Of a stretch of 32,000 bases of DNA, positions 4,171 through 29,214 are shown in pieces (positions within the stretch are counted from its first letter, which is position 1; the number at the start of each line of letters is the position of its first letter). The notes under the pieces are model-generated. The model saw nothing but the letters and a program-made list of their open reading frames with translations. It had not been told where the DNA came from and did not search any database. A program made the translations under genes and the position numbers. The DNA comes from Bifidobacterium longum subsp. longum JCM 1217 (GTDB taxonomy: Bacteria > Actinomycetota > Actinomycetes > Actinomycetales > Bifidobacteriaceae). The stretch covers positions 390,001-422,000 of the forward strand of contig NC_015067.1 of NCBI RefSeq assembly GCF_000196555.1, in the 5' to 3' direction.

Positions 4171-5079
4171 ATGCCCACCCAAAAACTACTCGAACGCAAA
4201 GCCCTGATCGTTGGTATCGTCATCAACGTGCTGCAGGTCTTAGCCGGCATGGCCGTGTTCTTCATGACCGGTCTCAAGGCCATGTTCCTCGACTTCTCCT
4301 TCACCGCGATTTCCGTCCTGTCCGGAATGGTGGCGGTGTACCTCTCGTCGCGCACGGTGCGAACCACCGAGCGCTTCCCCAATGGCATGTTCGCACTGGA
4401 ACCTATCTACGCGATCTGCAAGGCCATTTTCACCATGTCGTTGTTGGTGTATTCGCTGATTGACGTGTGCCGAGTAGCGTACGACTACTTCGTGTTCGGG
4501 TCCGGCGAACGCATTGAAACCGGCCCGGTGGTCATCTACGAGATCCTGACCGTAATCGTGTGCTTCAGCCTATACACGTATTACCGGCGCTCCAACCGAT
4601 CCATCGGCGATTCCAGCACCATGCTCACCGCCGAGTGCAAGAGCACGTTGGTCGACGGATCGATGTCGTTCGGCATCGGCGTAGTTGCCATCTTCCTGAT
4701 GCTGCTACCGGCCGGCGGTCCGCTTGACTTCCTGCACTACACCGGCGATTTCTTCATCACCGTGGCTTTGGTGGCATTGACCATCAAGGAGCCGTTCAGC
4801 GTGCTCAAAGAGGCGTTCGTGGAATTGGTCGGCGGCGTGCATGACGACGATGAAACCAACGCCTACGTGGAGGCCGAGGCACAGCGCCATCTGCCTGCCA
4901 ACACCGACTACGAGCAGACGCTGATCTTCAAGACCGGTATGAACTACACCGTTGACGTGTATCTGAGCGGCATCGGCGAAACCATTGATGTAGCTGACCT
5001 CATCGAATGCAAGCGCTCGCTGGAAAAGGAGCTCAGCAAGCGCCTGCACATCGTGGACGTGGACTTCGTGTTTGACTGA
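4171..5079 (+). CDS. Cation diffusion facilitator-like membrane transporter
   Basis: Start at ATG 4171 with an AAGGAAGG RBS. Six predicted TM helices plus a C-terminal cytoplasmic domain. The TM2-3 region (FLDFSFTAISVL..RFPNGMFALEP) resembles the cation_efflux family, but the usual His residues are not obvious. Confidence 0.55.
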   Translation: MPTQKLLERKALIVGIVINVLQVLAGMAVFFMTGLKAMFLDFSFTAISVLSGMVAVYLSSRTVRTTERFPNGMFALEPIYAICKAIFTMSLLVYSLIDVCRVAYDYFVFGSGERIETGPVVIYEILTVIVCFSLYTYYRRSNRSIGDSSTMLTAECKSTLVDGSMSFGIGVVAIFLMLLPAGGPLDFLHYTGDFFITVALVALTIKEPFSVLKEAFVELVGGVHDDDETNAYVEAEAQRHLPANTDYEQTLIFKTGMNYTVDVYLSGIGETIDVADLIECKRSLEKELSKRLHIVDVDFVFD

Positions 5080-5097
5080 TTGATGGGTTTGAAGCGA

Positions 5098-6747
5098 CTA
5101 CTTCAGACTCCAAGTGGAACCCTGCGGGCCGTCTTCGATGGCGATGCCGGCCTCGGTCAGGGCGTCGCGAATCTGATCGGCCTTGGCGAAATCCTTGGCC
5201 TTGCGAGCTTCGGCACGGGCGTTGAGCTGTTCGGCGATCAGTGCCTCCAGCGCTGCATGCTCGGGCGACTCGGCCGTGCCATCAGCGGCACCGCCGGCAG
5301 CGCCGGCGGACACCCACGGTTCGGCCAGCGGGTCCAGGCCCAAGGTGTCGAGCATGGCACGCACGGCGAGCAGCGCCTCACGCACCTCGGCCTTGGCGGT
5401 TTCGGAATCGGCGCGGTCAGCCAGCTGTGAAAGCAACGTATTGCCGGAACGGATGGCGGTGAAGATCGCGGCGGTTGCACCAGACACATTGACATCGTCA
5501 TTCATGGCGGCCACGAAATCGGCGGGCAAATCGTCGGCGGAGACGGCAGTGACTTCCTCGCGAGAAGGCTGTCCACCCAGCGCCACACCGGCACGCTCGA
5601 TGAAGTTCGAGACGCGGTCGTATGCGGCCTGCGCCTCGACCAGCGCCTGATCGGACCATTCGAGCATCGACCGGTACTGCACGGAGCCCAGGGCGTAACG
5701 CACCACCCAAGCGGAATGCTCAGCCAACACGCTCGGCACGGACAGGCCGGTGCCCAGCGACTTCGACATCTTCTCGCCCTTGGCGGTCACCCATGCCGAA
5801 TGCATCCAGCGCGCAGCGGAGGGGTAGCCGGCCGCACGGGTCTGAGCCATTTCGTTTTCGTGGTGGGGGAAGCGCAGATCCAAGCCGCCGCCGTGAATGT
5901 CGAAGCCATCGCCCAGGTAACGGTGGGACATGGCGGAGCATTCGATGTGCCAGCCAGGGCGGCCCACGCCAAACGGCGTCGACCAACGGGCGTCCTCGGG
6001 ATCGGTGTCCTTCGGAGCCTTCCACAGGGCGAAATCACGCGGATCATGCTTGTCGGGGGAGGCATCGGCCGGGTCGACCGGATTGTACTTGTCGGCACCG
6101 GTGGCGTCCACGGACGGGCCCATGCGGTCGGCCACGGCGGCGGCCTCATCGACTTCGGAGGTCTGCTTCTGGTGAGTGAGTTCGCCGTAATGCGGCCAGG
6201 ATGCCACATCGAAGTACACGTTGCCGGTGGGCTTGCCGTCCGCATCCGTGACCACATAGCCGTGACCGTTGTCGAGAATGCGCTGAATCAGGTCGATCAT
6301 GTCCGACATGTGGCCGGTGGCGCGAGGTTCCACAGTGGGCGGCAGTACGCCGAGCGTGTTGTATGCCTCGGTGAATTCGCGCTCGTAGTAATAGGCGCGG
6401 GCCCACCAACGCTGGCCTGCGGCCGCGGCCTTAACGAGAATCTTGTCGTCGATATCGGTCACATTACGCACAAAAGTGACTTTGTAGCCGAGCTTCAAAA
6501 ACCAGCGGCGCACGATGTCGAACGCCACGGCGGCACGGATATGGCCAATATGCGGTGACGATTGCACAGTCGCGCCACACACATAAATGCCGACTTCGCC
6601 CGGCTTGAGCGGCACGAAATGGCTGACCTGGTGCGAGGCGGTGTCATACAGATTCAGGCCTTCTGCGGCCTTGGCAACATGCACCGGCGTCAGGCTTGAA
6701 GGCATGACGGAAATGTTGAAATCCTGCGGTTCTTGGCTGTTTCCCAT
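5098..6747 (-). CDS. cysS: Cysteine--tRNA ligase
   Basis: HIGH motif (SPHIGHIRAAV) and KMSKS motif (KMSKSLG). The start is uncertain: ATG at 6747 (MGNSQEP) or 6705 (MPSSLTPV). The track start at 6861 is unlikely. Confidence 0.9.
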   Translation of the reverse strand: MGNSQEPQDFNISVMPSSLTPVHVAKAAEGLNLYDTASHQVSHFVPLKPGEVGIYVCGATVQSSPHIGHIRAAVAFDIVRRWFLKLGYKVTFVRNVTDIDDKILVKAAAAGQRWWARAYYYEREFTEAYNTLGVLPPTVEPRATGHMSDMIDLIQRILDNGHGYVVTDADGKPTGNVYFDVASWPHYGELTHQKQTSEVDEAAAVADRMGPSVDATGADKYNPVDPADASPDKHDPRDFALWKAPKDTDPEDARWSTPFGVGRPGWHIECSAMSHRYLGDGFDIHGGGLDLRFPHHENEMAQTRAAGYPSAARWMHSAWVTAKGEKMSKSLGTGLSVPSVLAEHSAWVVRYALGSVQYRSMLEWSDQALVEAQAAYDRVSNFIERAGVALGGQPSREEVTAVSADDLPADFVAAMNDDVNVSGATAAIFTAIRSGNTLLSQLADRADSETAKAEVREALLAVRAMLDTLGLDPLAEPWVSAGAAGGAADGTAESPEHAALEALIAEQLNARAEARKAKDFAKADQIRDALTEAGIAIEDGPQGSTWSLK

Positions 6748-6965
6748 AACACTCAAGCGTAGGGTCCGAACCAGACATGCTGAATCGTTACTCGAAGAGT
6801 TTGATGAACGCTTCACAGGTGGGGCCCGAACGAGGTGACAGACGGATGAGAAGCGGGACAACAGTCTCGCGAGAACACGTCTTTGACCGCTGCGGAAACT
6901 GCGAGATTCATGGATTTGCCCTGCTCGTTACGCAAACGGGGAACGCTCGTGCCACAATAGAAGTC

Positions 6966-7694
6966 ATGGCCACACCACAAGTGCTCATTTTGCAACATGT
7001 CCCATGGGAACGCCCGGGACGCATATTGTCGAACCTCGAGGACATCGGTCTTGAGACGGTGACGATGAATATCGTCGACAAAAAGAAACCGGACTTGCCT
7101 GATTTCGGCGAACTGGCTGGCGTGGTAATCATGGGTGGGCCTATGGGCGCGCTTGATTACGACAAGTATCCGGGGCTGAAGGCAGAAGCCAAGTTGGCGC
7201 GTGCCGCCGTGGCTTCAGGCAAGCCGATTCTCGGTGTATGCCTGGGGCATCAGATTATCGCCACTGCGCTTGGTGCGCAGCTGCGCAAGGGCGATGCGCC
7301 GGAGATTGGGTTCGCGCCGATCAAGCGTGTGGACAAGCATGACTTCTTCTCCATGTGGGATAAGCAGCTGACAGTGCTGCACTGGCATAACGACGTGGTG
7401 GGCCTGCCCGCGGAAGGCCAGCTGCTGTCGCGTTCGTCTTCCACCAAGGTGCAGGCATTCCGACTGGGATCCGCGCTGGGCATGCAGTTCCACCTGGAAG
7501 TGTGCGGCTCGCTGCTGGACGAATGGCTGGATGAGCCGAGCATGGTCAAGGATCTCAAGGCCGCGGGTGGTTCCAAGTCCCAATTGCGCGAGCAGTTCGC
7601 CCAATACGACCAGCTACTGCAACCGCTCGCCGAGCAAGTGTTCTCCGGTTTTGCGGCCCGCTGCAACTCCTACGCTCAGACGCTGAACAAATAA
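6966..7694 (+). CDS. Class I glutamine amidotransferase-like protein
   Basis: Start at MATPQVLILQHVPWE (ATG 6966). Nucleophile elbow GVCLGHQ and a downstream FHLE His/Glu motif. Confidence 0.8.
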   Translation: MATPQVLILQHVPWERPGRILSNLEDIGLETVTMNIVDKKKPDLPDFGELAGVVIMGGPMGALDYDKYPGLKAEAKLARAAVASGKPILGVCLGHQIIATALGAQLRKGDAPEIGFAPIKRVDKHDFFSMWDKQLTVLHWHNDVVGLPAEGQLLSRSSSTKVQAFRLGSALGMQFHLEVCGSLLDEWLDEPSMVKDLKAAGGSKSQLREQFAQYDQLLQPLAEQVFSGFAARCNSYAQTLNK

Positions 7695-10863: not shown

Positions 10864-10900
10864 AAAAAAGGCGGATATGCATCATGCGCATCCGCCTTTT
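10864..10900 (-). terminator. Intrinsic terminator of ilvBN (bidirectional shape)
   Basis: 9-bp stem AAGGCGGAT / ATCCGCCTT flanked by an A-run and a T-run. On the minus strand the stem is followed by TTTTTT, 34 nt after the ilvN stop. Confidence 0.7.
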
Positions 10901-10933
10901 GAGCTTGGACTGGGTCTTCCCGCAGTCGCCGAA

Positions 10934-11488
10934 TCAGCGCCCGGTAACCTCGGAACCGACGACCTTTTCGCTCAGGGCGCGCGGGCCGCGGGTCACGGCT
11001 ACGGCACCGGAGCGCACCAGCTCAATCACACCGTAATGCTCCAAAAGCCCCAGCAGGGCGTCGATCTTGCCTTCGGCACCGGTGGCCTCAATGGTCAGCG
11101 ATTCCGGATTCACGTCCACCACGCGCACGCGGAACAGACGCACGATCTCCAGCACGTCGGAACGGTTGGATTCGTTGGCGGCCACCTTGATGAGCACCAG
11201 TTCGCGTTCCACGGTGGAGTTCGGGTCGAGTTCCACGATTTTGAGCACATGCAGCAGCTTGTTGAGCTGCTTGATGATCTGCTCCAGCGGCACGGCCTCC
11301 ACGTCGGCGGTCACCGTGACGCGAGAGATGTCCGGACGCTCGGTGGGGGAGACGGACAGCGAGTTGATGTTGAACGCACGGCGGGCGAACAGGCCGGCGA
11401 TACGCGCCAGCACGCCTGGGCGGTTCTCCACCAGCACGGACAGCGTATGACGCTGGGAACCAGGCTGGGATGCAGGATAGTTAGCCAT
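10934..11488 (-). CDS. ilvN: Acetolactate synthase small (regulatory) subunit
   Basis: Start at MANYPASQ (ATG 11488) with a GGAGAGGAGA RBS. ACT domain HTLSVLVENRPGVLARIAGLFARRAFNINSL. Lies 16 nt after the ilvB stop. Confidence 0.9.
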   Translation of the reverse strand: MANYPASQPGSQRHTLSVLVENRPGVLARIAGLFARRAFNINSLSVSPTERPDISRVTVTADVEAVPLEQIIKQLNKLLHVLKIVELDPNSTVERELVLIKVAANESNRSDVLEIVRLFRVRVVDVNPESLTIEATGAEGKIDALLGLLEHYGVIELVRSGAVAVTRGPRALSEKVVGSEVTGR

Positions 11489-11504
11489 GAGTGTTCTCCT
11501 CTCC

Positions 11505-13472
<1,968 letters not shown>

Positions 13473-19228: not shown

Positions 19229-19855
19229 CTATCCGAGTAAGGCCTTGCTCGGCAGTGCGCGGTCGAGCAGCCAGACAACGAGCGATATCACGAAGAACGC
19301 TATGGCCAGCTTGCCGCAGCTAATGCCGAACCCTTGCCAGTCGAGTGCGTCGAGGTTGATGAAGTCGTACGGATACGGACTGCCGCCGGCCGCCGGTCCG
19401 GACCCCGGCCAAATCGCCGCACGGGCCAGCACGAAGACCAAGTATGCAGGGAAGTACGCCAGCCACGAGAACATGTAATGCCAGCGGAAACGCCGGTGCG
19501 GGTCGAATAGCACGAAATCGATAACCGCCATAATCGGGGCGATTTTGTGCAGCATCGTATTGGTCATGATGCCAATAACCTGTGGCACGTATGCCGGGTC
19601 GTCCGGAGGCGTCAGGAAGAACGCCACCAGTGCGGTGACTATGGCGTACACAGTCAGGCACCCCTTAAGCCATGCAGGCGGCTGAATACCTTTGAGCAGT
19701 GTGGCCGCGCCGGACCACAGCATCACGATGCCCAGCACGAAACCGGTCTGGAACGTGAAATACACCCAGAACTGCGGTTTGGACCATGCCTCATATGTGC
19801 CCACGAAGCAGAAACCGGCGATCGCAAAGCGCCACAACGCCACGATGAATCTCAT
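19229..19855 (-). CDS. Integral membrane protein (Pr6Pr/FAR-17a-like, function unknown)
   Basis: 208 aa with about six hydrophobic helices. No catalytic motif recognised. Confidence 0.6.
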   Translation of the reverse strand: MRFIVALWRFAIAGFCFVGTYEAWSKPQFWVYFTFQTGFVLGIVMLWSGAATLLKGIQPPAWLKGCLTVYAIVTALVAFFLTPPDDPAYVPQVIGIMTNTMLHKIAPIMAVIDFVLFDPHRRFRWHYMFSWLAYFPAYLVFVLARAAIWPGSGPAAGGSPYPYDFINLDALDWQGFGISCGKLAIAFFVISLVVWLLDRALPSKALLG

Positions 19856-23269: not shown

Positions 23270-23292
23270 GTCGTCTAGGCTGTCTAGCTGCA

Positions 23293-23330
23293 CTGAGCCG
23301 CGACTAAGCCACAGTTGAGTCGCGGCTCAG
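23293..23330 (+). terminator. Hairpin downstream of rdgB
   Basis: 13-bp stem CTGAGCCGCGACT / AGTCGCGGCTCAG with a 12-nt loop. Confidence 0.5.
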
Positions 23331-23393
23331 CACTCAGCCCCCGAATCGGGCGAGTGTCTAGCAAGCGCCTATGACCTAGCAAGGGCGATACGA

Positions 23394-23426
23394 AAGAAGG
23401 CCGGCGCTTAGTGCGTCGGCCTTCTT
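23394..23426. terminator. Hairpin terminator 3' of the non-canonical tRNA (also faces rdgB)
   Basis: 10-bp stem AAGAAGGCCG / CGGCCTTCTT. On the minus strand it starts 11 nt after the tRNA 3' end and is followed by TCTTTCG. Confidence 0.5.
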
Positions 23427-23436
23427 GATGAACAAG

Positions 23437-23509
23437 AGCCACCCGATAGAATCGAACTACCGACCTTCCCACGAACGAGGGGGATGCTCTACCACTGAGC
23501 TAAGGTGGC
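23437..23509 (-). tRNA. tRNA-Thr(CGU)-like gene with an 8-nt anticodon loop (non-canonical)
   Basis: Minus strand reads GCCACCT TA GCTC AGTGGTA GAGC A TCCCC CTCGTTCG TGGGA AGGTC GGTAG TTCGATT CTATC GGGTGGC T. The acceptor, D and T arms are good and CGT sits at positions 34-36. The loop has one extra nucleotide, position 37 is not a purine, and 31-39 is a C.U mismatch. No encoded CCA. Confidence 0.65.
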
Positions 23510-23532: not shown

Positions 23533-23561
23533 AATATAGCACTGCGTTTGATTCACTGCAA
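23533..23561 (-). promoter_or_regulatory. Sigma-70-like promoter for the non-canonical tRNA
   Basis: Minus strand reads TTGCAG - 17 nt - TATATT. The -10 ends 23 nt upstream of the mature tRNA 5' end. A small leader hairpin, TGGCT-TCAAG-AGCCA, lies at 23511..23525. Confidence 0.55.
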
Positions 23562-23715: not shown

Positions 23716-24984
23716 ATGCGTGATTTTGTGCTGGTGAAGTTGACAGACGAGGAGTTCGATGATTTCTCCGCCAGGCATCCACAAGGCAATTTCCAACAAA
23801 CCTCGGCGATGGGACGCCTTCGCGCCGCGCAGGGGATCGACGTCGAATATTTGGCCCTCAAGGAGGGCGAGAAGATCGTCGCGGCGGCACTGTTCGAAAC
23901 TCACCGCTCTCGATTCTCTACATTTGCGGTCATCCATGATGGCCCGATGTGCGACTATCACGACACCGAAGCATTGACCTTCTTCATGGATGCGCTGAAA
24001 CGCCATGCCAAGGCAAAGGGTGCTTCACAGCTGGAAATCACCCCTGAATCCCCGTATCGGCTTCGCGACACCAATGGAGCTTCTTTGCCGGATGACCAGA
24101 ATGGCGCTCCCGACAATAAGCTGATAGAACAGCTCGAGGCGATCGGCTTCACTCATGGCGGTTTCACCGTGGGCTACACGGCGGTTCCGCGTTGGCGCTA
24201 CCTCAAGGATCTGACCGGCATTACCGATGAGAAAAGTCTGCTGAAGTCCTATGACAAGCGCACCCAGTGGAGCGTGAAGCGTGCCCAATCGATGGGTGTG
24301 CACGTGCGTGAGCTGTCGGACGACGAGCTGGGGGTATTCGCACGAATCGAGCAGCAAACCGCTGAACGCCGTAGCTTCGAATACCGTGGCGAAGCATATT
24401 TCCACCGTTTCAAGGAAGCGTTCGGCAGCAAAGCGCATTTTATGGTTGCCGAGATCCACATCGACGAATACGTAGCGGACATGACGTCCAAGCGTGAAGC
24501 GCTTTCGGCCAAGGTGGCGGCATTGACCGCCAAAAACGCCGAACACCCCACCACCAAAACCGAACGTCAGCTGGGGGAGGAGACCCGCAATCTGGCGGCA
24601 GCCGAAAAGCGCCTGAACGAGGCGGCCGAGTTCGCCAAAGACGGGGATGTACTGCCGGCTGCGGCATCACTATTCGTGGAGCATCCGCGCGAGGTCATCT
24701 ACCTGTTCTCCGGTAGCGTCGAGCAGTACAAGCCCTTCTACGCCTCCGCGCTGATTCAGCATGACGCGATGCTGCATTTCTGCGTGGAACACGGGCTGTC
24801 TCGCTACAACTTCTACGGCATCGACGGCGTCTTTGATGATCCCGATGACGAGGGGCGTGGTGTACTGGAGTTCAAGCAGGGCTTCAACGGATATGTCGAG
24901 GAACTTCCGGGCGAGTTCGTGCTGCCGGTCAAACCGGTCGCCTATGCCATGAAGCAATTTGCGCACAAGCTGCTGTCGCGGTAA
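23716..24984 (+). CDS. FemXAB-family aminoacyl-tRNA-dependent peptidoglycan cross-bridge transferase, paralog 1
   Basis: Start at MRDFVLVKLTDEEF (ATG 23716) with an AAGGGAAG RBS; the track ORF start at 23425 runs through the tRNA. Two GNAT-like halves are separated by a helical coiled-coil arm (EYVADMTSKREALSAKVAALTAK..). C-terminal RYNFYGI.G and LEFKQGFNG. Confidence 0.85.
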   Translation: MRDFVLVKLTDEEFDDFSARHPQGNFQQTSAMGRLRAAQGIDVEYLALKEGEKIVAAALFETHRSRFSTFAVIHDGPMCDYHDTEALTFFMDALKRHAKAKGASQLEITPESPYRLRDTNGASLPDDQNGAPDNKLIEQLEAIGFTHGGFTVGYTAVPRWRYLKDLTGITDEKSLLKSYDKRTQWSVKRAQSMGVHVRELSDDELGVFARIEQQTAERRSFEYRGEAYFHRFKEAFGSKAHFMVAEIHIDEYVADMTSKREALSAKVAALTAKNAEHPTTKTERQLGEETRNLAAAEKRLNEAAEFAKDGDVLPAAASLFVEHPREVIYLFSGSVEQYKPFYASALIQHDAMLHFCVEHGLSRYNFYGIDGVFDDPDDEGRGVLEFKQGFNGYVEELPGEFVLPVKPVAYAMKQFAHKLLSR

Positions 24985-25057: not shown

Positions 25058-26368
25058 ATGACGCAATCCGATGCAGGCGTCGCCTCGCTCACCCCTACCA
25101 AGATCACTCCTGCCGAGCTGGATGCGTTCTCCGCAGCTCAAGTGCAAGGTAGTTTCCAGCAGACCTCGCAGATGGCCGCCATGGGTGCGTTCAACGGTCC
25201 GGTGGACTATGTGGGTGTCAAGCGCGGTGACAAGCTGATTGCCGCCTGCTACGTGGTGTACACGCGGTCCCGTTTCGGTTTGGAAGGCTCGGTCTGGTGC
25301 GGACCGCTGTGCGATTATGACAATCCACAGGTGGTTGAGGCGATGACCGAAGCCCTGCGTCGTTCGGCCAAGGCCCATCACGCCATCAGCGTATCCTGCT
25401 GGCCGGCCGCAGTCTACCGTCTGCATGATCTGGACGGCAAGCCGACCAGCGACCCGGACACCACGATGATGGACAACATGGCCCGCTTCGGTTGGAAACA
25501 TGGCGGTTTCACCGTGGGCTACGAATCCGTGGTGAACCGCTGGAACTTCGTCAAGGGGCTTGACGGCATTCATAATGAGAAGGAACTGCTGGCCTCGTTC
25601 TCCAAGTACCGCCGTAAGAACATCCGCATTGCCCAGGATTCCGGTCTGCGCGTGCGCCGACTGGAACGCGGCGAACTGAGCACTTTCGTCAAGCTGTGCG
25701 ATATGAGCGCCGCACGTCAAGGCTTCAAGAGCCGCGATCTGGCCTACTATGAGCGTCTGTTCGATACCTTCGGCGACCTGATCGAGTTCAAGGTGGTCGA
25801 AACCCATTTCGACGAATATCTGGACACCCTGCAATCCAAGCTGAATGCGGCCTCCAAAGACAAGCGCAACCTCGAACGCCTGCTCCAGCGCACGCAACAG
25901 CAGCCGGAAGGCACGGCCAAGAAGGGTGCTTCCGACCCGGCAACGCTGGAAAAGCGCATCGCCACCGCAGACAAGAAGATTGCGGCGCTGGAAAAGACCA
26001 TCGGCGAAGTCAATGGCATCATCGCTTCGGACGGCCCGGTCATTCCGGTGGAAGCCGGCGTCTACTTCTGGCATCCGAACGAGGTCGTCTGCCTGTCCAG
26101 CGGCGAGGACGATCGTTTCATGGATTACTACCCGTCTTCCCTAATCCACTTCGAGGCGATGCTTGACTGCATCGCCCGTGGCGTGGAGCGCTTCAACTTC
26201 TACGGCATTTCCGGTATTTTCGACGCCAACGATCCTTCCTACGGCGTCTGGCAGTTCAAGACTCGCTTCGGCGGATTCGTGGAAGAGCTTCCGGGCAAGT
26301 TCACGCTGCCGGTGGACGGACTGCGCTTCGGTGTATCCGAAGCAGCGCACAAGCTGCTGCATCGCTGA
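25058..26368 (+). CDS. FemXAB-family peptidoglycan cross-bridge transferase, paralog 2
   Basis: 436 aa, same architecture as paralog 1, with a divergent coiled-coil arm (LDTLQSKLNAASKDKRNLERLLQ..) and C-terminal RFNFYGISG and WQFKTRFGG. Confidence 0.85.
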   Translation: MTQSDAGVASLTPTKITPAELDAFSAAQVQGSFQQTSQMAAMGAFNGPVDYVGVKRGDKLIAACYVVYTRSRFGLEGSVWCGPLCDYDNPQVVEAMTEALRRSAKAHHAISVSCWPAAVYRLHDLDGKPTSDPDTTMMDNMARFGWKHGGFTVGYESVVNRWNFVKGLDGIHNEKELLASFSKYRRKNIRIAQDSGLRVRRLERGELSTFVKLCDMSAARQGFKSRDLAYYERLFDTFGDLIEFKVVETHFDEYLDTLQSKLNAASKDKRNLERLLQRTQQQPEGTAKKGASDPATLEKRIATADKKIAALEKTIGEVNGIIASDGPVIPVEAGVYFWHPNEVVCLSSGEDDRFMDYYPSSLIHFEAMLDCIARGVERFNFYGISGIFDANDPSYGVWQFKTRFGGFVEELPGKFTLPVDGLRFGVSEAAHKLLHR

Positions 26369-26417: not shown

Positions 26418-27698
26418 ATGAGCGCGACTGCGAATCGAACAGATACGACGTATACGTTTGGCGTGATTACGCCCGAAGAGCTCGACCGGCTTTCCGAAGC
26501 CACAAGCCAGGGCAGCTTCCAGCAATGGTCCGGGCAGGTCCGTCTTGCCAAGATTCGTGGGCATGAAGCCGAATGCGTTGGCGTGTGCGACGCATCCGGC
26601 AATCTGGTAACCGGCTGCGTAATTCTGTACCTCAATGGTCGTTTCGGTGCAGATGGCTCCGTATATTTCGGCCCCATCGGCATTAGCGATGATCCGGCTC
26701 TGCTGCGGGCCATAACCGAGGCGATTTGCGAATCAGCCCGTCGCCACCATGCTGTTTCCGTAGCATGCTGGCCTAACGTCGCCTACCGTCTGTATTCCTC
26801 GGACGGGCAGCCCGACGGCGAGCCGAACGATGCACTACTGGCCGGATTCGCCGATGCCGGCTGGACGCATGGCGGATTCCATACCGGTTATGACGTGGTC
26901 TGTCAGTGGATGTACGTCAAGGATCTCACCGGCATCACCAACGGCAAGGAACTGCTGGCGTCATTCGGCAAACGTGCTCAGTGGAGTGTCAAGCGGGCGC
27001 AGTCGATGGGTGTGCACGTTCGTGAGATCGGCCCCGACGAGTTCGACGTGTTCGCCGATATCGAACGGCGGACCGGTGAACGCCGTGGGTTCGCGACGCG
27101 TGGCGCGGACTATTTCCGCCAGTTCAAGCAGGCGTATGGCGCAGATGCGCATTTCATGCTCGCGGAAATCCACATCGCCGAATATGTGGCGGATATGACC
27201 GCCAAGCGCGAGGCGTTGCAGGCCAAGGTAGCTCGATTGCAGGCGAAATACGATGAACGTCCGACCACGCGTATCGAACGTCAGCTGGGGGAGGAATCAC
27301 GCAATCTCGCGGCCGCCGACAAGCGTCTGGCTGAGGTGGAGGGATATGCCAGGAAGGGCGATGTGCTGCCGGCAGCGGCTTCAATGTTCGTCAGTCACCC
27401 CAATGAGGTGGTCTATCAGTATTCCGGTTCGTTGGAGGAGTACAAGCCGTTCTACGCCTCGGCGCTGATTCAGTACGAAGCAATGCTGCATCTATGTGTG
27501 GAGAAGGGCGTGAGCCGCTACAACTTCTACGGCATTTCCGGCGTGTTCGACGATCCGAACGACGAGGGCCGCGGCGTGCTGGAATTCAAGCAGGGCTTTA
27601 ACGGCTACGTCGAGCAGATGGTAGGAAAATTCACGTTGCCGGTGGATAAGTTCCGCTTCGGCGTGAGCAATCTGGCGCACAAGCTGCTGCGCCGGTAG
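26418..27698 (+). CDS. FemXAB-family peptidoglycan cross-bridge transferase, paralog 3
   Basis: 426 aa. The C-terminal half is very close to paralog 1 (QWSVKRAQSMGVHVRE, DVLPAAAS, YKPFYASALIQ, DEGRGVLEFKQGFNGYVE). The N-terminal half is closer to paralog 2. Confidence 0.85.
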   Translation: MSATANRTDTTYTFGVITPEELDRLSEATSQGSFQQWSGQVRLAKIRGHEAECVGVCDASGNLVTGCVILYLNGRFGADGSVYFGPIGISDDPALLRAITEAICESARRHHAVSVACWPNVAYRLYSSDGQPDGEPNDALLAGFADAGWTHGGFHTGYDVVCQWMYVKDLTGITNGKELLASFGKRAQWSVKRAQSMGVHVREIGPDEFDVFADIERRTGERRGFATRGADYFRQFKQAYGADAHFMLAEIHIAEYVADMTAKREALQAKVARLQAKYDERPTTRIERQLGEESRNLAAADKRLAEVEGYARKGDVLPAAASMFVSHPNEVVYQYSGSLEEYKPFYASALIQYEAMLHLCVEKGVSRYNFYGISGVFDDPNDEGRGVLEFKQGFNGYVEQMVGKFTLPVDKFRFGVSNLAHKLLRR

Positions 27699-28973: not shown

Positions 28974-29054
28974 TGCGCGAGATGGGACTTGAACCCACAC
29001 GTCAAAGACACAGGAACCTAAATCCTGCGCGTCTACCAATTCCGCCACTCGCGC
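28974..29054 (-). tRNA. tRNA-Leu(UAG)
   Basis: Minus strand reads GCGCGAG..CTCGCGC A. Anticodon arm CAGGA-TTTAGGT-TCCTG, a long variable arm, T-loop TTCAAGT. CCA not encoded. Confidence 0.85.
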
Positions 29055-29141: not shown

Positions 29142-29214
29142 AGCCACTTGTCAGAATCGAACTGACGACCTGCTCATTACGAGTGAGCCGCTCTACCGAC
29201 TGAGCTAAAGTGGC
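29142..29214 (-). tRNA. tRNA-Thr(CGU), canonical
   Basis: GCCACTT TA GCTC AGTCGGTA GAGC G GCTCA CTCGTAA TGAGC AGGTC GTCAG TTCGATT CTGAC AAGTGGC T. All stems are Watson-Crick, the loop is 7 nt, and position 37 is A. Confidence 0.9.

Follow-up and report, generated by a model that had tools for sequence, protein, structure and literature searches.

To assemble the side-chain peptide of peptidoglycan precursors, FemAB enzymes draw on aminoacyl-tRNAs, and additional tRNAs of a non-proteogenic kind are so far known only from Staphylococcus aureus and Staphylococcus epidermidis (Rietmeyer et al. 2021, PMC7826273). The staphylococcal NP1-NP3 tRNAGly (PMC7826273; Giannouli et al. 2009) are extra paralogues found beside proteinogenic copies, are charged by the normal synthetase, carry altered T-stem pairs that weaken binding to EF-Tu, and act as donors for bridge-building FemAB-family transferases. 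Here, we describe an aberrant paralogue of tRNA-Thr(CGU), located on the minus strand at 23437..23509 of a 32,000-nucleotide stretch of the Bifidobacterium longum subsp. longum JCM 1217 genome (NC_015067.1, positions 390,001 to 422,000; this whole stretch is referred to as the window, and coordinates are counted from its first nucleotide). We propose that this RNA is probably a non-proteogenic tRNA-Thr, supplying threonine for the peptidoglycan cross-bridge. A preliminary description of the window, made from the sequence alone, had presented the gene as standing alone; it is in fact embedded in a cluster of three FemAB-family transferase genes.

The comparison with the staphylococcal tRNAs holds for several features. 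The aberrant tRNA-Thr is likewise an extra paralogue of a proteinogenic tRNA, it also has altered T-stem pairs of the kind that weaken EF-Tu binding, and its sequence leads us to expect charging by the normal synthetase, while the donor role established for the staphylococcal RNAs is here suggested by linkage to Fem genes. It differs in amino acid and phylum (threonine in Actinomycetota, as opposed to glycine in Bacillota), and, unlike the staphylococcal genes, it lies inside the fem cluster. A precedent for the amino acid comes from Micrococcus roseus, for which an early report describes threonyl-tRNA-dependent bridge synthesis (Roberts, Strominger & Soll 1968, J Biol Chem 243:749). The likeness lies in the tRNA-dependent incorporation of L-Thr into an interpeptide bridge by an actinobacterium, as a biochemical observation. 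To our knowledge, no dedicated tRNA-Thr species has been described in that organism. There is also a partial likeness to frameshift suppressors such as sufJ, with which the aberrant tRNA shares a tRNA-Thr body and one extra nucleotide in the anticodon arm. Frameshift suppressors with 8-nt loops arose in the laboratory by mutation of proteinogenic tRNAs and bind EF-Tu normally, whereas in the present case the extra base is not conserved, suits a bulge in the stem, and is joined by changes that weaken EF-Tu binding.

The gene itself is recovered by ARAGORN, by the Rfam tRNA family (RF00005), and by a covariance model built for this purpose. ARAGORN, which calls three tRNA genes in the window, places a minus-strand tRNA-Thr(cgt) at 23436..23509 and sets its anticodon one position early, and the Rfam match spans the 73 nt from 23437 to 23509 with 47.6 bits (E 2e-7), well above the family gathering score of 29; the two agree with the 73-nt minus-strand tRNA-Thr(CGU) proposed in the preliminary description. 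In the alignment to the Rfam tRNA model, the anticodon arm is the sole disturbed region. Divided by structural element, the RNA reads GCCACCU UA GCUC AGUGGUA GAGC A UCCCC CUCGUUCG UGGGA AGGUC GGUAG UUCGAUU CUAUC GGGUGGC U. The canonical, proteinogenic tRNA-Thr(CGU), which has the same anticodon, lies 5.6 kb away at 29142..29214 on the minus strand (ARAGORN; Rfam, 71.2 bits), and neither of the two B. longum genes encodes CCA. Comparison of the two copies bears out all that had been said of the body of the aberrant tRNA: its first five acceptor pairs and U73 are those of the canonical copy, with which it also shares the variable loop (AGGUC) and the T loop (UUCGAUU), and the deviating pairs G50.U64, U51-A63 and U.G at 7-66 are all present. 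The canonical tRNA is almost invariant among the Bifidobacterium loci where it was found, and it is the probable source of the aberrant paralogue by duplication.

We note that the extra nucleotide in the anticodon arm is not an assembly error, since the same sequence is present in independent assemblies. One of the collected loci (L001) carries the aberrant tRNA without any difference from the window copy, and the tRNA together with 340 nt of flank is identical in five further independent assemblies, three of which are NCBI genome assemblies. An assembly indel, which the preliminary description had named as a possible refutation, is thus ruled out by sequence identity across B. longum assemblies. 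A covariance model built from the aberrant tRNAs scores the window copy at 102.8 bits and the canonical copy at 77.4 bits, and the scores across loci are bimodal, with 93-103 bits for the aberrant tRNAs, 75-78 bits for canonical tRNA-Thr(CGU), and none in between.

Our comparison set consists of six distinct ortholog sequences, which fall into four clearly different versions. All of these share G1-C72, C2-G71, C3-G70, U73, a D arm with G18G19, C34-G35-U36, U37, the variable loop, and the T loop, and the motifs AGUGGUA and UUCGAUU are kept in every variant. Standard pairs are formed in 96% of the cells of the stem alignment, with compensatory changes at 27-43 (U-A to G-C) and at 52-62 (A-U, U-A, G-C), and in some B. 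longum contigs the tRNA differs by one base (C25U in L034 and U69C in L055). One version is 100% identical across four species; for two of the loci concerned, L002 and L024, the flanks align at only 55-61%, which is near the level of unrelated sequence under the scoring used, and flank alignments over all five loci compared fall at 55-65%. This pattern is that expected of a functional RNA under its own constraints, and not of a decaying copy.

The anticodon arm calls for a more careful reading. The arm given in the preliminary description, UCCCC-CUCGUUCG-UGGGA, is correct, but its interpretation as an 8-nt loop closed by a C31.U39 mismatch is only one way of drawing it, in which the fifth stem pair is formed in 0/5 sequences. 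By comparison, a C31-G39 pair with one bulged U or C fits all six sequences and leaves the same 7-nt loop, N-U-C-G-U-U-Y, in each of them. Judged from these sequences, the bulge reading suits the orthologs more closely than the 8-nt loop with its mismatch, although it remains a better fit and not a proof, because the C31-G39 pair shows no variation. Single-sequence minimum free energy folds are uninformative on this arm, since its C-run pairs in several registers. The variants of B. longum, of the callitrichidarum type and of L058 can be drawn with an 8-nt loop, and five of the six distinct sequences have an anticodon arm that is either bulged or 8-nt; the Bifidobacterium oedipodis ortholog, in contrast, has a perfect 5-bp anticodon stem with a 7-nt loop (UUCGUUU), such that not all orthologs have the 8-nt loop. 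Within the loop, positions 32 and 38 differ among species. The alignment of orthologous loci suggested in the preliminary description thus bears out the compensatory stem changes, but not a conserved 8-nt loop.

Two of the orthologs have peculiarities of their own. The B. oedipodis tRNA (L032, 7373..7444) has a G4.U69 pair, which in vertebrate tRNA-Thr permits mischarging by AlaRS, but not with bacterial AlaRS (PMC9976931). In the L058 tRNA (7310..7383), the 3' strand of the T stem is longer by one nucleotide and a CCA end is encoded, and ARAGORN reports this gene as an undetermined tRNA with the four-base anticodon 'cgtt'.

The second affected region is the T stem. Schrader and Uhlenbeck (2011, PMC3239215) tabulated how much free energy pairs 49-65, 50-64 and 51-63 contribute to the binding of EF-Tu, with G.U at 50-64 being the most costly (+1.4 kcal/mol). 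Applying Table 2 of that work to the T-stem pairs yields a predicted binding free energy of -10.0 kcal/mol for the canonical copy (GC/UA/CG), which equals the class mean of that study, compared to -8.1 kcal/mol for the aberrant tRNA in the window (GC/GU/UA) and -8.3 kcal/mol for the callitrichidarum type (GC/GU/GU). None of the six sequences has a Watson-Crick pair at 50-64 (G.U in four, U.U in two), and pair 51-63 is U-A, G.U or C.U, with C-G possible in the irregular T stem of L058. In Table 4 of the same study, an entry labeled 'Thr CGU, Bifidobacterium longum' has a predicted value of -8.1 kcal/mol and measured values of -8.3 +/- 0.5 and -8.3 +/- 0.3 kcal/mol in two chimeras (T-stem and whole-body); the authors noted a second, normal copy in B. 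longum and called the outlier a candidate for a non-translational function, with none specified. Species, anticodon, the existence of a second normal copy, and the predicted -8.1 kcal/mol all match the tRNA described here. The 2011 study considered the T stem only, without the Fem neighborhood, the threonine in the peptidoglycan, the anticodon-arm anomaly, or the orthologs. Taking these values together, the weak T stem is predicted to lower the affinity for EF-Tu by ~1.7-1.9 kcal/mol, or roughly 20-fold.

With respect to charging, the identity elements read by threonyl-tRNA synthetase (ThrRS) lie in the acceptor stem and the anticodon (PMC9976931). As pointed out in the preliminary description, the aberrant tRNA has CGU, G1-C72 and C2-G71 at the relevant positions, and these are kept in every ortholog, with G1-C72, C2-G71 and C34-G35-U36 being invariant in all six distinct sequences. 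In Escherichia coli, ThrRS identity is conferred by G1-C72, C2-G71, G35 and U36, and, because all ThrRS identity elements are retained, charging with threonine is to be expected. Position 37, on the other hand, departs from the norm: tRNAs that read ANN codons normally carry t6A at this position, and the aberrant tRNA has U37 instead of A37, which cannot be converted to t6A. The departures from the canonical sequence thus cluster in the EF-Tu-contacting pairs and at position 37, and are not scattered over the molecule. The suggestion that the RNA could be charged with threonine and yet be a poor substrate for translation, as put forward in the preliminary description, is therefore supported in its direction by the retained identity elements, the weak T-stem pairs, U37, and the published binding data (PMC3239215); what it missed is the Fem and peptidoglycan context, to which we now turn.

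The three Fem genes lie in tandem on the plus strand, divergent from the aberrant tRNA, with the first beginning 207 nt from the 5' end of the tRNA. All three encode FemAB-family aminoacyl-tRNA-dependent peptidoglycan transferases in which the match to Pfam PF02388 spans the protein end to end: Fem1 at 23716..24984 (E 6e-140, start codon set from the sequence), Fem2 at 25058..26368 (E 2e-133), and Fem3 at 26418..27698 (E 8e-108). Their mutual identity is 38-40% (Fem3 and Fem2, 40%), and Fem2 matches S. aureus FemA (1LRZ) with E 6e-35 and FmhB (6SNR) with E 4e-23. The exact Fem2 protein is very frequent in public assemblies, and one source names it 'peptidoglycan branched peptide synthesis protein [B. 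longum subsp. longum]'. The peptidoglycan bridge of B. longum is Ser-Ala-Thr-Ala (bioRxiv 10.1101/2023.04.17.537164), and, with threonine in the bridge, this species therefore needs a tRNA-dependent threonine donor. The amino acid that the aberrant tRNA would be expected to carry, based on its anticodon and identity elements, is thus present in the bridge of the organism from which the window derives. A Pfam scan of the window proteins finds no other aminoacyl-tRNA-using gene in the neighborhood of the tRNA.

To place this arrangement among relatives, we collected 32 loci from species-representative genomes by a search anchored on Fem1, all from Bifidobacterium or Pseudoscardovia, and gathered extra loci via relatives of Fem2, giving 45 distinct Fem loci in total, in which presence or absence of the aberrant tRNA was judged within ~6 kb of the Fem genes. 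The loci share a common synteny comprising NAPRTase, RNase PH, Ham1/RdgB, one to three Fem genes, a membrane transporter, tRNA-Leu(UAG) with canonical tRNA-Thr(CGU), and PGI. An ortholog of the aberrant tRNA is present in 11 of the 45 loci, and in every one of these it is part of the Fem array, where it either separates Ham1 from the first Fem gene or directly follows the last one. The carriers are five B. longum-type loci, B. callitrichidarum, B. miconisargentati, B. sp. SO4, B. scaligerum, B. oedipodis, and one metagenome-assembled genome. In the nine of these loci that reach past the membrane transporter gene, the canonical tRNA-Thr(CGU) is found as well, such that the paralogue coexists with the proteinogenic copy. 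Within the distance covered, the aberrant tRNA was not found in the other 34 loci, including those of B. olomucense, B. ramosum, B. eulemuris, B. lemurum, B. magnum and B. ruminantium, and the purpose-built covariance model detects no diverged or degenerate copies of it there.

Sequence elements that could support expression flank the gene, as had been noted before. Upstream, on the minus strand (23533..23561, read from the sequence), there is a promoter-like site consisting of TTGCAG (23556..23561), a 17-nt spacer, and TATATT (23533..23538) preceded by TGc, which ends 23 nt from the 5' end of the tRNA. A scanner for consensus promoters did not flag this site, which falls just below its threshold because only 8/12 positions match the consensus. 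Just downstream, RNAfold predicts a hairpin on the same strand (23394..23426; -22.1 kcal/mol for the 60-nt segment downstream of the tRNA), which is likely the terminator of the tRNA. Comparable elements are found where the flanks otherwise do not align: TTGnnn-17-TAnAnT sites lie upstream of the tRNA in L002, L024 and L058 (TTGCAT-17-TATATT, TTGCAA-17-TATAGT and TTGACG-17-TACAGT among these unrelated flanks), and strong hairpins lie 3' of it in L024, L032 and L058, with the promoter-like and hairpin elements recurring in four or five unrelated flanks. The preliminary description had also judged the gene not to be an obvious decaying pseudogene, with which the conservation, the compensatory changes, and these retained signals all agree. 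Between the Ham1 stop codon and the tRNA hairpin, there is a second strong inverted repeat at 23288..23335 (GCUGAGCCGCGACU...AGUCGCGGCUCAG), which is probably the Ham1 terminator, and to which Rfam returns only microRNA matches at chance level.

Based on these observations, we hypothesize the following sequence of events. The aberrant tRNA would be a diverged duplicate of the neighboring canonical tRNA-Thr(CGU) that ThrRS charges with threonine by way of G1-C72, C2-G71 and the CGU anticodon. The weak pairs at 50-64 and 51-63 would keep the resulting Thr-tRNA off EF-Tu, and the lack of A37 and t6A, along with the bulged or enlarged anticodon arm, would further disfavor decoding. The free Thr-tRNA could then be used by one of the adjacent Fem transferases, adding L-Thr as the third residue of the Ser-Ala-Thr-Ala bridge. 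For exclusion from the ribosome, U37 and the anticodon arm are features that only point in that direction, while for the role as a Fem donor substrate the evidence is the genetic linkage in 11/11 loci, which is suggestive of such use.

We note that a number of observations weigh against this proposal or limit how far it can be taken. Expression, charging, and use by a Fem transferase are deduced here from the sequence and its context. Neighbor-joining trees of all Fem proteins of the loci yield no clean threonine-specific Fem clade that tracks the tRNA, a gene closely related to the first Fem gene of B. scaligerum is present in B. eulemuris with no aberrant tRNA within 6 kb, and the rearranged Fem arrays of some B. 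longum-like contigs (L053, L054 and L055) nevertheless retain the tRNA. B. longum is the single tRNA-bearing species on which the correlation with a threonine-containing bridge is founded, and the absence of the tRNA elsewhere refers to only ~6 kb around the Fem genes. The 2011 EF-Tu outlier is almost certainly the tRNA of the window, as judged from the species, the anticodon, and the identical prediction, but not from its sequence. The linkage to the Fem genes could also be partly inherited synteny, since the canonical tRNA-Thr flanks the cluster too; because this gene borders the Fem cluster, a local duplication accounts for the origin of the aberrant tRNA at this place. Its retention inside the array at two different positions suggests that it is tied to the Fem genes, but is not conclusive. 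Finally, the structural hallmarks of the staphylococcal tRNAs are not shared. In those RNAs, G18G19 is replaced. Their T loop moreover lacks the UUC (T-Psi-C) triplet (PMC7826273), whereas the aberrant tRNA-Thr retains both G18G19 and a normal T loop, and its anomalies are instead U37 and the bulged or expanded anticodon arm. Because these hallmarks are absent, we consider it to be an independent solution and no homologue of the staphylococcal lineage.

Several of these points feed directly into other explanations of the locus. The RNA could be a non-translational tRNA with another job, either as a donor for a different aminoacyl-tRNA-dependent transferase or as a regulatory RNA reporting threonine levels or tRNA charging to the Fem genes, with its proximity to these being inherited synteny only. 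In favor of this, the weak EF-Tu binding was measured but left without an assigned function (PMC3239215), no Fem clade tracks the tRNA, and local duplication next to the canonical tRNA-Thr could by itself explain the position. We nevertheless consider this improbable, as the tRNA occupies two different positions among species and yet always lies within the Fem array, no further aminoacyl-tRNA-using gene is found nearby, and B. longum does require a tRNA-dependent threonine donor; furthermore, Rfam finds no T-box or other known RNA in the intergenic region between the tRNA and Fem1 or in the Fem1 leader, even at permissive thresholds. Slow decay or neutral persistence of a functionless duplicate of canonical tRNA-Thr(CGU) would account for the lower Rfam score (47.6 vs 71.2 bits), the irregular anticodon arm, and the single-base variants C25U (L034) and U69C (L055), but appears quite improbable when set against a variant that is 100% identical in four species while the flanks of L002 and L024 align at only 55-61%, against compensatory changes in the stems, and against identity elements, T loop and G18G19 that are kept in all variants. 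The promoter-like sites and hairpins are also retained, and the departures are focused on the EF-Tu pairs and position 37. Judged from the sequences, the aberrant tRNA would thus have lost none of the features whose loss marks a tRNA pseudogene, namely the fold, the identity elements, the expression signals, and conservation. An integration-site remnant was also considered and rejected, in view of the conserved synteny, the ordinary GC content, and the lack of an integrase among the window proteins scanned against Pfam.

A continued role on the ribosome can be imagined in two forms. As a specialized tRNA-Thr for decoding ACG under particular conditions, the RNA would make use of its intact anticodon and acceptor identity and its normal elbow (G18G19 and T loop), but there is a canonical tRNA with this very anticodon at a distance of 5.6 kb, EF-Tu binding is weaker by ~1.7-1.9 kcal/mol both in prediction and in measurement, A37 is absent, and the anticodon stem is bulged, all of which render this reading very unlikely. 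The other form is that of a natural quadruplet decoder, or +1 frameshift tRNA, reading a four-base codon with an 8-nt loop, which the preliminary description had offered as an alternative. A Thr-derived frameshift suppressor with an enlarged loop is known in sufJ, an 8-nt loop can be drawn in the B. longum, callitrichidarum-type and L058 variants, and ARAGORN proposes the four-base anticodon 'cgtt' for the last of these. We regard this alternative as extremely unlikely: the extra nucleotide is absent in B. oedipodis, which has a 7-nt loop, the bulge fits 6/6 sequences, compared to 0/5 in which an 8-nt loop would have its fifth stem pair, positions 32 and 38 vary, and U37 cannot be modified to t6A. 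Moreover, a frameshift tRNA would call for efficient delivery by EF-Tu, whereas the binding is weak (predicted -8.1 and published -8.3, vs the class mean of -10.0 kcal/mol), and the Fem context would be left unexplained.

Returning to the proposed role in cross-bridge synthesis, a more specific form of it can be envisioned, which we put forward tentatively and consider to be unlikely. Here, the aberrant tRNA and one neighboring Fem transferase would form a private, co-inherited pair of donor and enzyme, in which the anticodon-arm anomalies (U37, the bulged pyrimidine, and the C-rich stem) would also act as positive recognition elements for the threonine-adding Fem enzyme, by which it would distinguish Thr-tRNA from the Ser- and Ala-tRNAs that also serve this bridge. 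If so, this would be the first cell-wall tRNA encoded within its fem cluster, and the first Fem enzyme to read its substrate beyond the acceptor, D and T regions.

A full-text search of the literature brought up no paper in which a Bifidobacterium tRNA-Thr is connected with Fem enzymes or peptidoglycan, and the functional context of the aberrant tRNA is thus apparently unreported, with the 2011 EF-Tu outlier as a partial prior notice. If the proposed role is correct, this would be the second known case of a dedicated cell-wall tRNA after the staphylococcal glycine tRNAs, the division of the aminoacyl-tRNA pool between ribosome and cell wall would have evolved more than once and by different structural means, and a tRNA whose weak EF-Tu binding has stood unexplained since 2011 would gain a function. 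The combination of a T stem that is weak at 50-64 and 51-63, the lack of A37, and residence in a fem cluster could serve as a signature for other non-translational tRNAs, and the locus offers a handle on the species-specific cross-bridges of bifidobacteria, which are relevant to envelope mechanics and to host recognition of muropeptides.

The surroundings of the gene provide some further observations. The Fem array is a hot spot of variation, with one to three Fem genes per Bifidobacterium species. Two B. longum-like contigs, L053 (array at 4623..7275) and L054, have two Fem genes, one of which resembles a hybrid of Fem2 and Fem3, the hybrid-like second gene of such contigs being 63% identical to Fem2 and 78% to Fem3, while in L055 (3637..7583) Fem2 is replaced by a gene 75% identical to Fem1. 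This variation may correspond to strain-level differences in the cross-bridge. The canonical tRNA-Leu(UAG) lies at 28974..29054 on the minus strand, paired with the canonical tRNA-Thr(CGU), and most of the Bifidobacterium loci covered here have this pair at the far border of their Fem cluster. Two open reading frames in the window are without a Pfam match, at 10877..11611 on the plus strand (244 residues) and at 19229..19855 on the minus strand (208 residues), the latter of which adjoins the NAPRTase gene and is conserved in B. longum-like contigs.

Outside of the collected Fem loci, a scan of metagenomes with TAGCTCAGTGGTAGAGCNNNNNNDTCGTT returned 14 contigs with no ortholog of the aberrant tRNA among them, the matches being truncated or interrupted 5' halves of tRNAs. 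Six contigs from soil metagenomes (L039, L043, L045, L048, L050 and L051) have a common tRNA 5' half (GGTAGCTCAGTGGTAGAGCAGCAGAATCGTT) that runs into conserved non-tRNA sequence (TCTCAAAA.CCTTGTCGCCGCAGGTTGCATT), and which could be part of an intron-interrupted or truncated tRNA. One of the six, L045, also contains an array of 25 tRNA genes.

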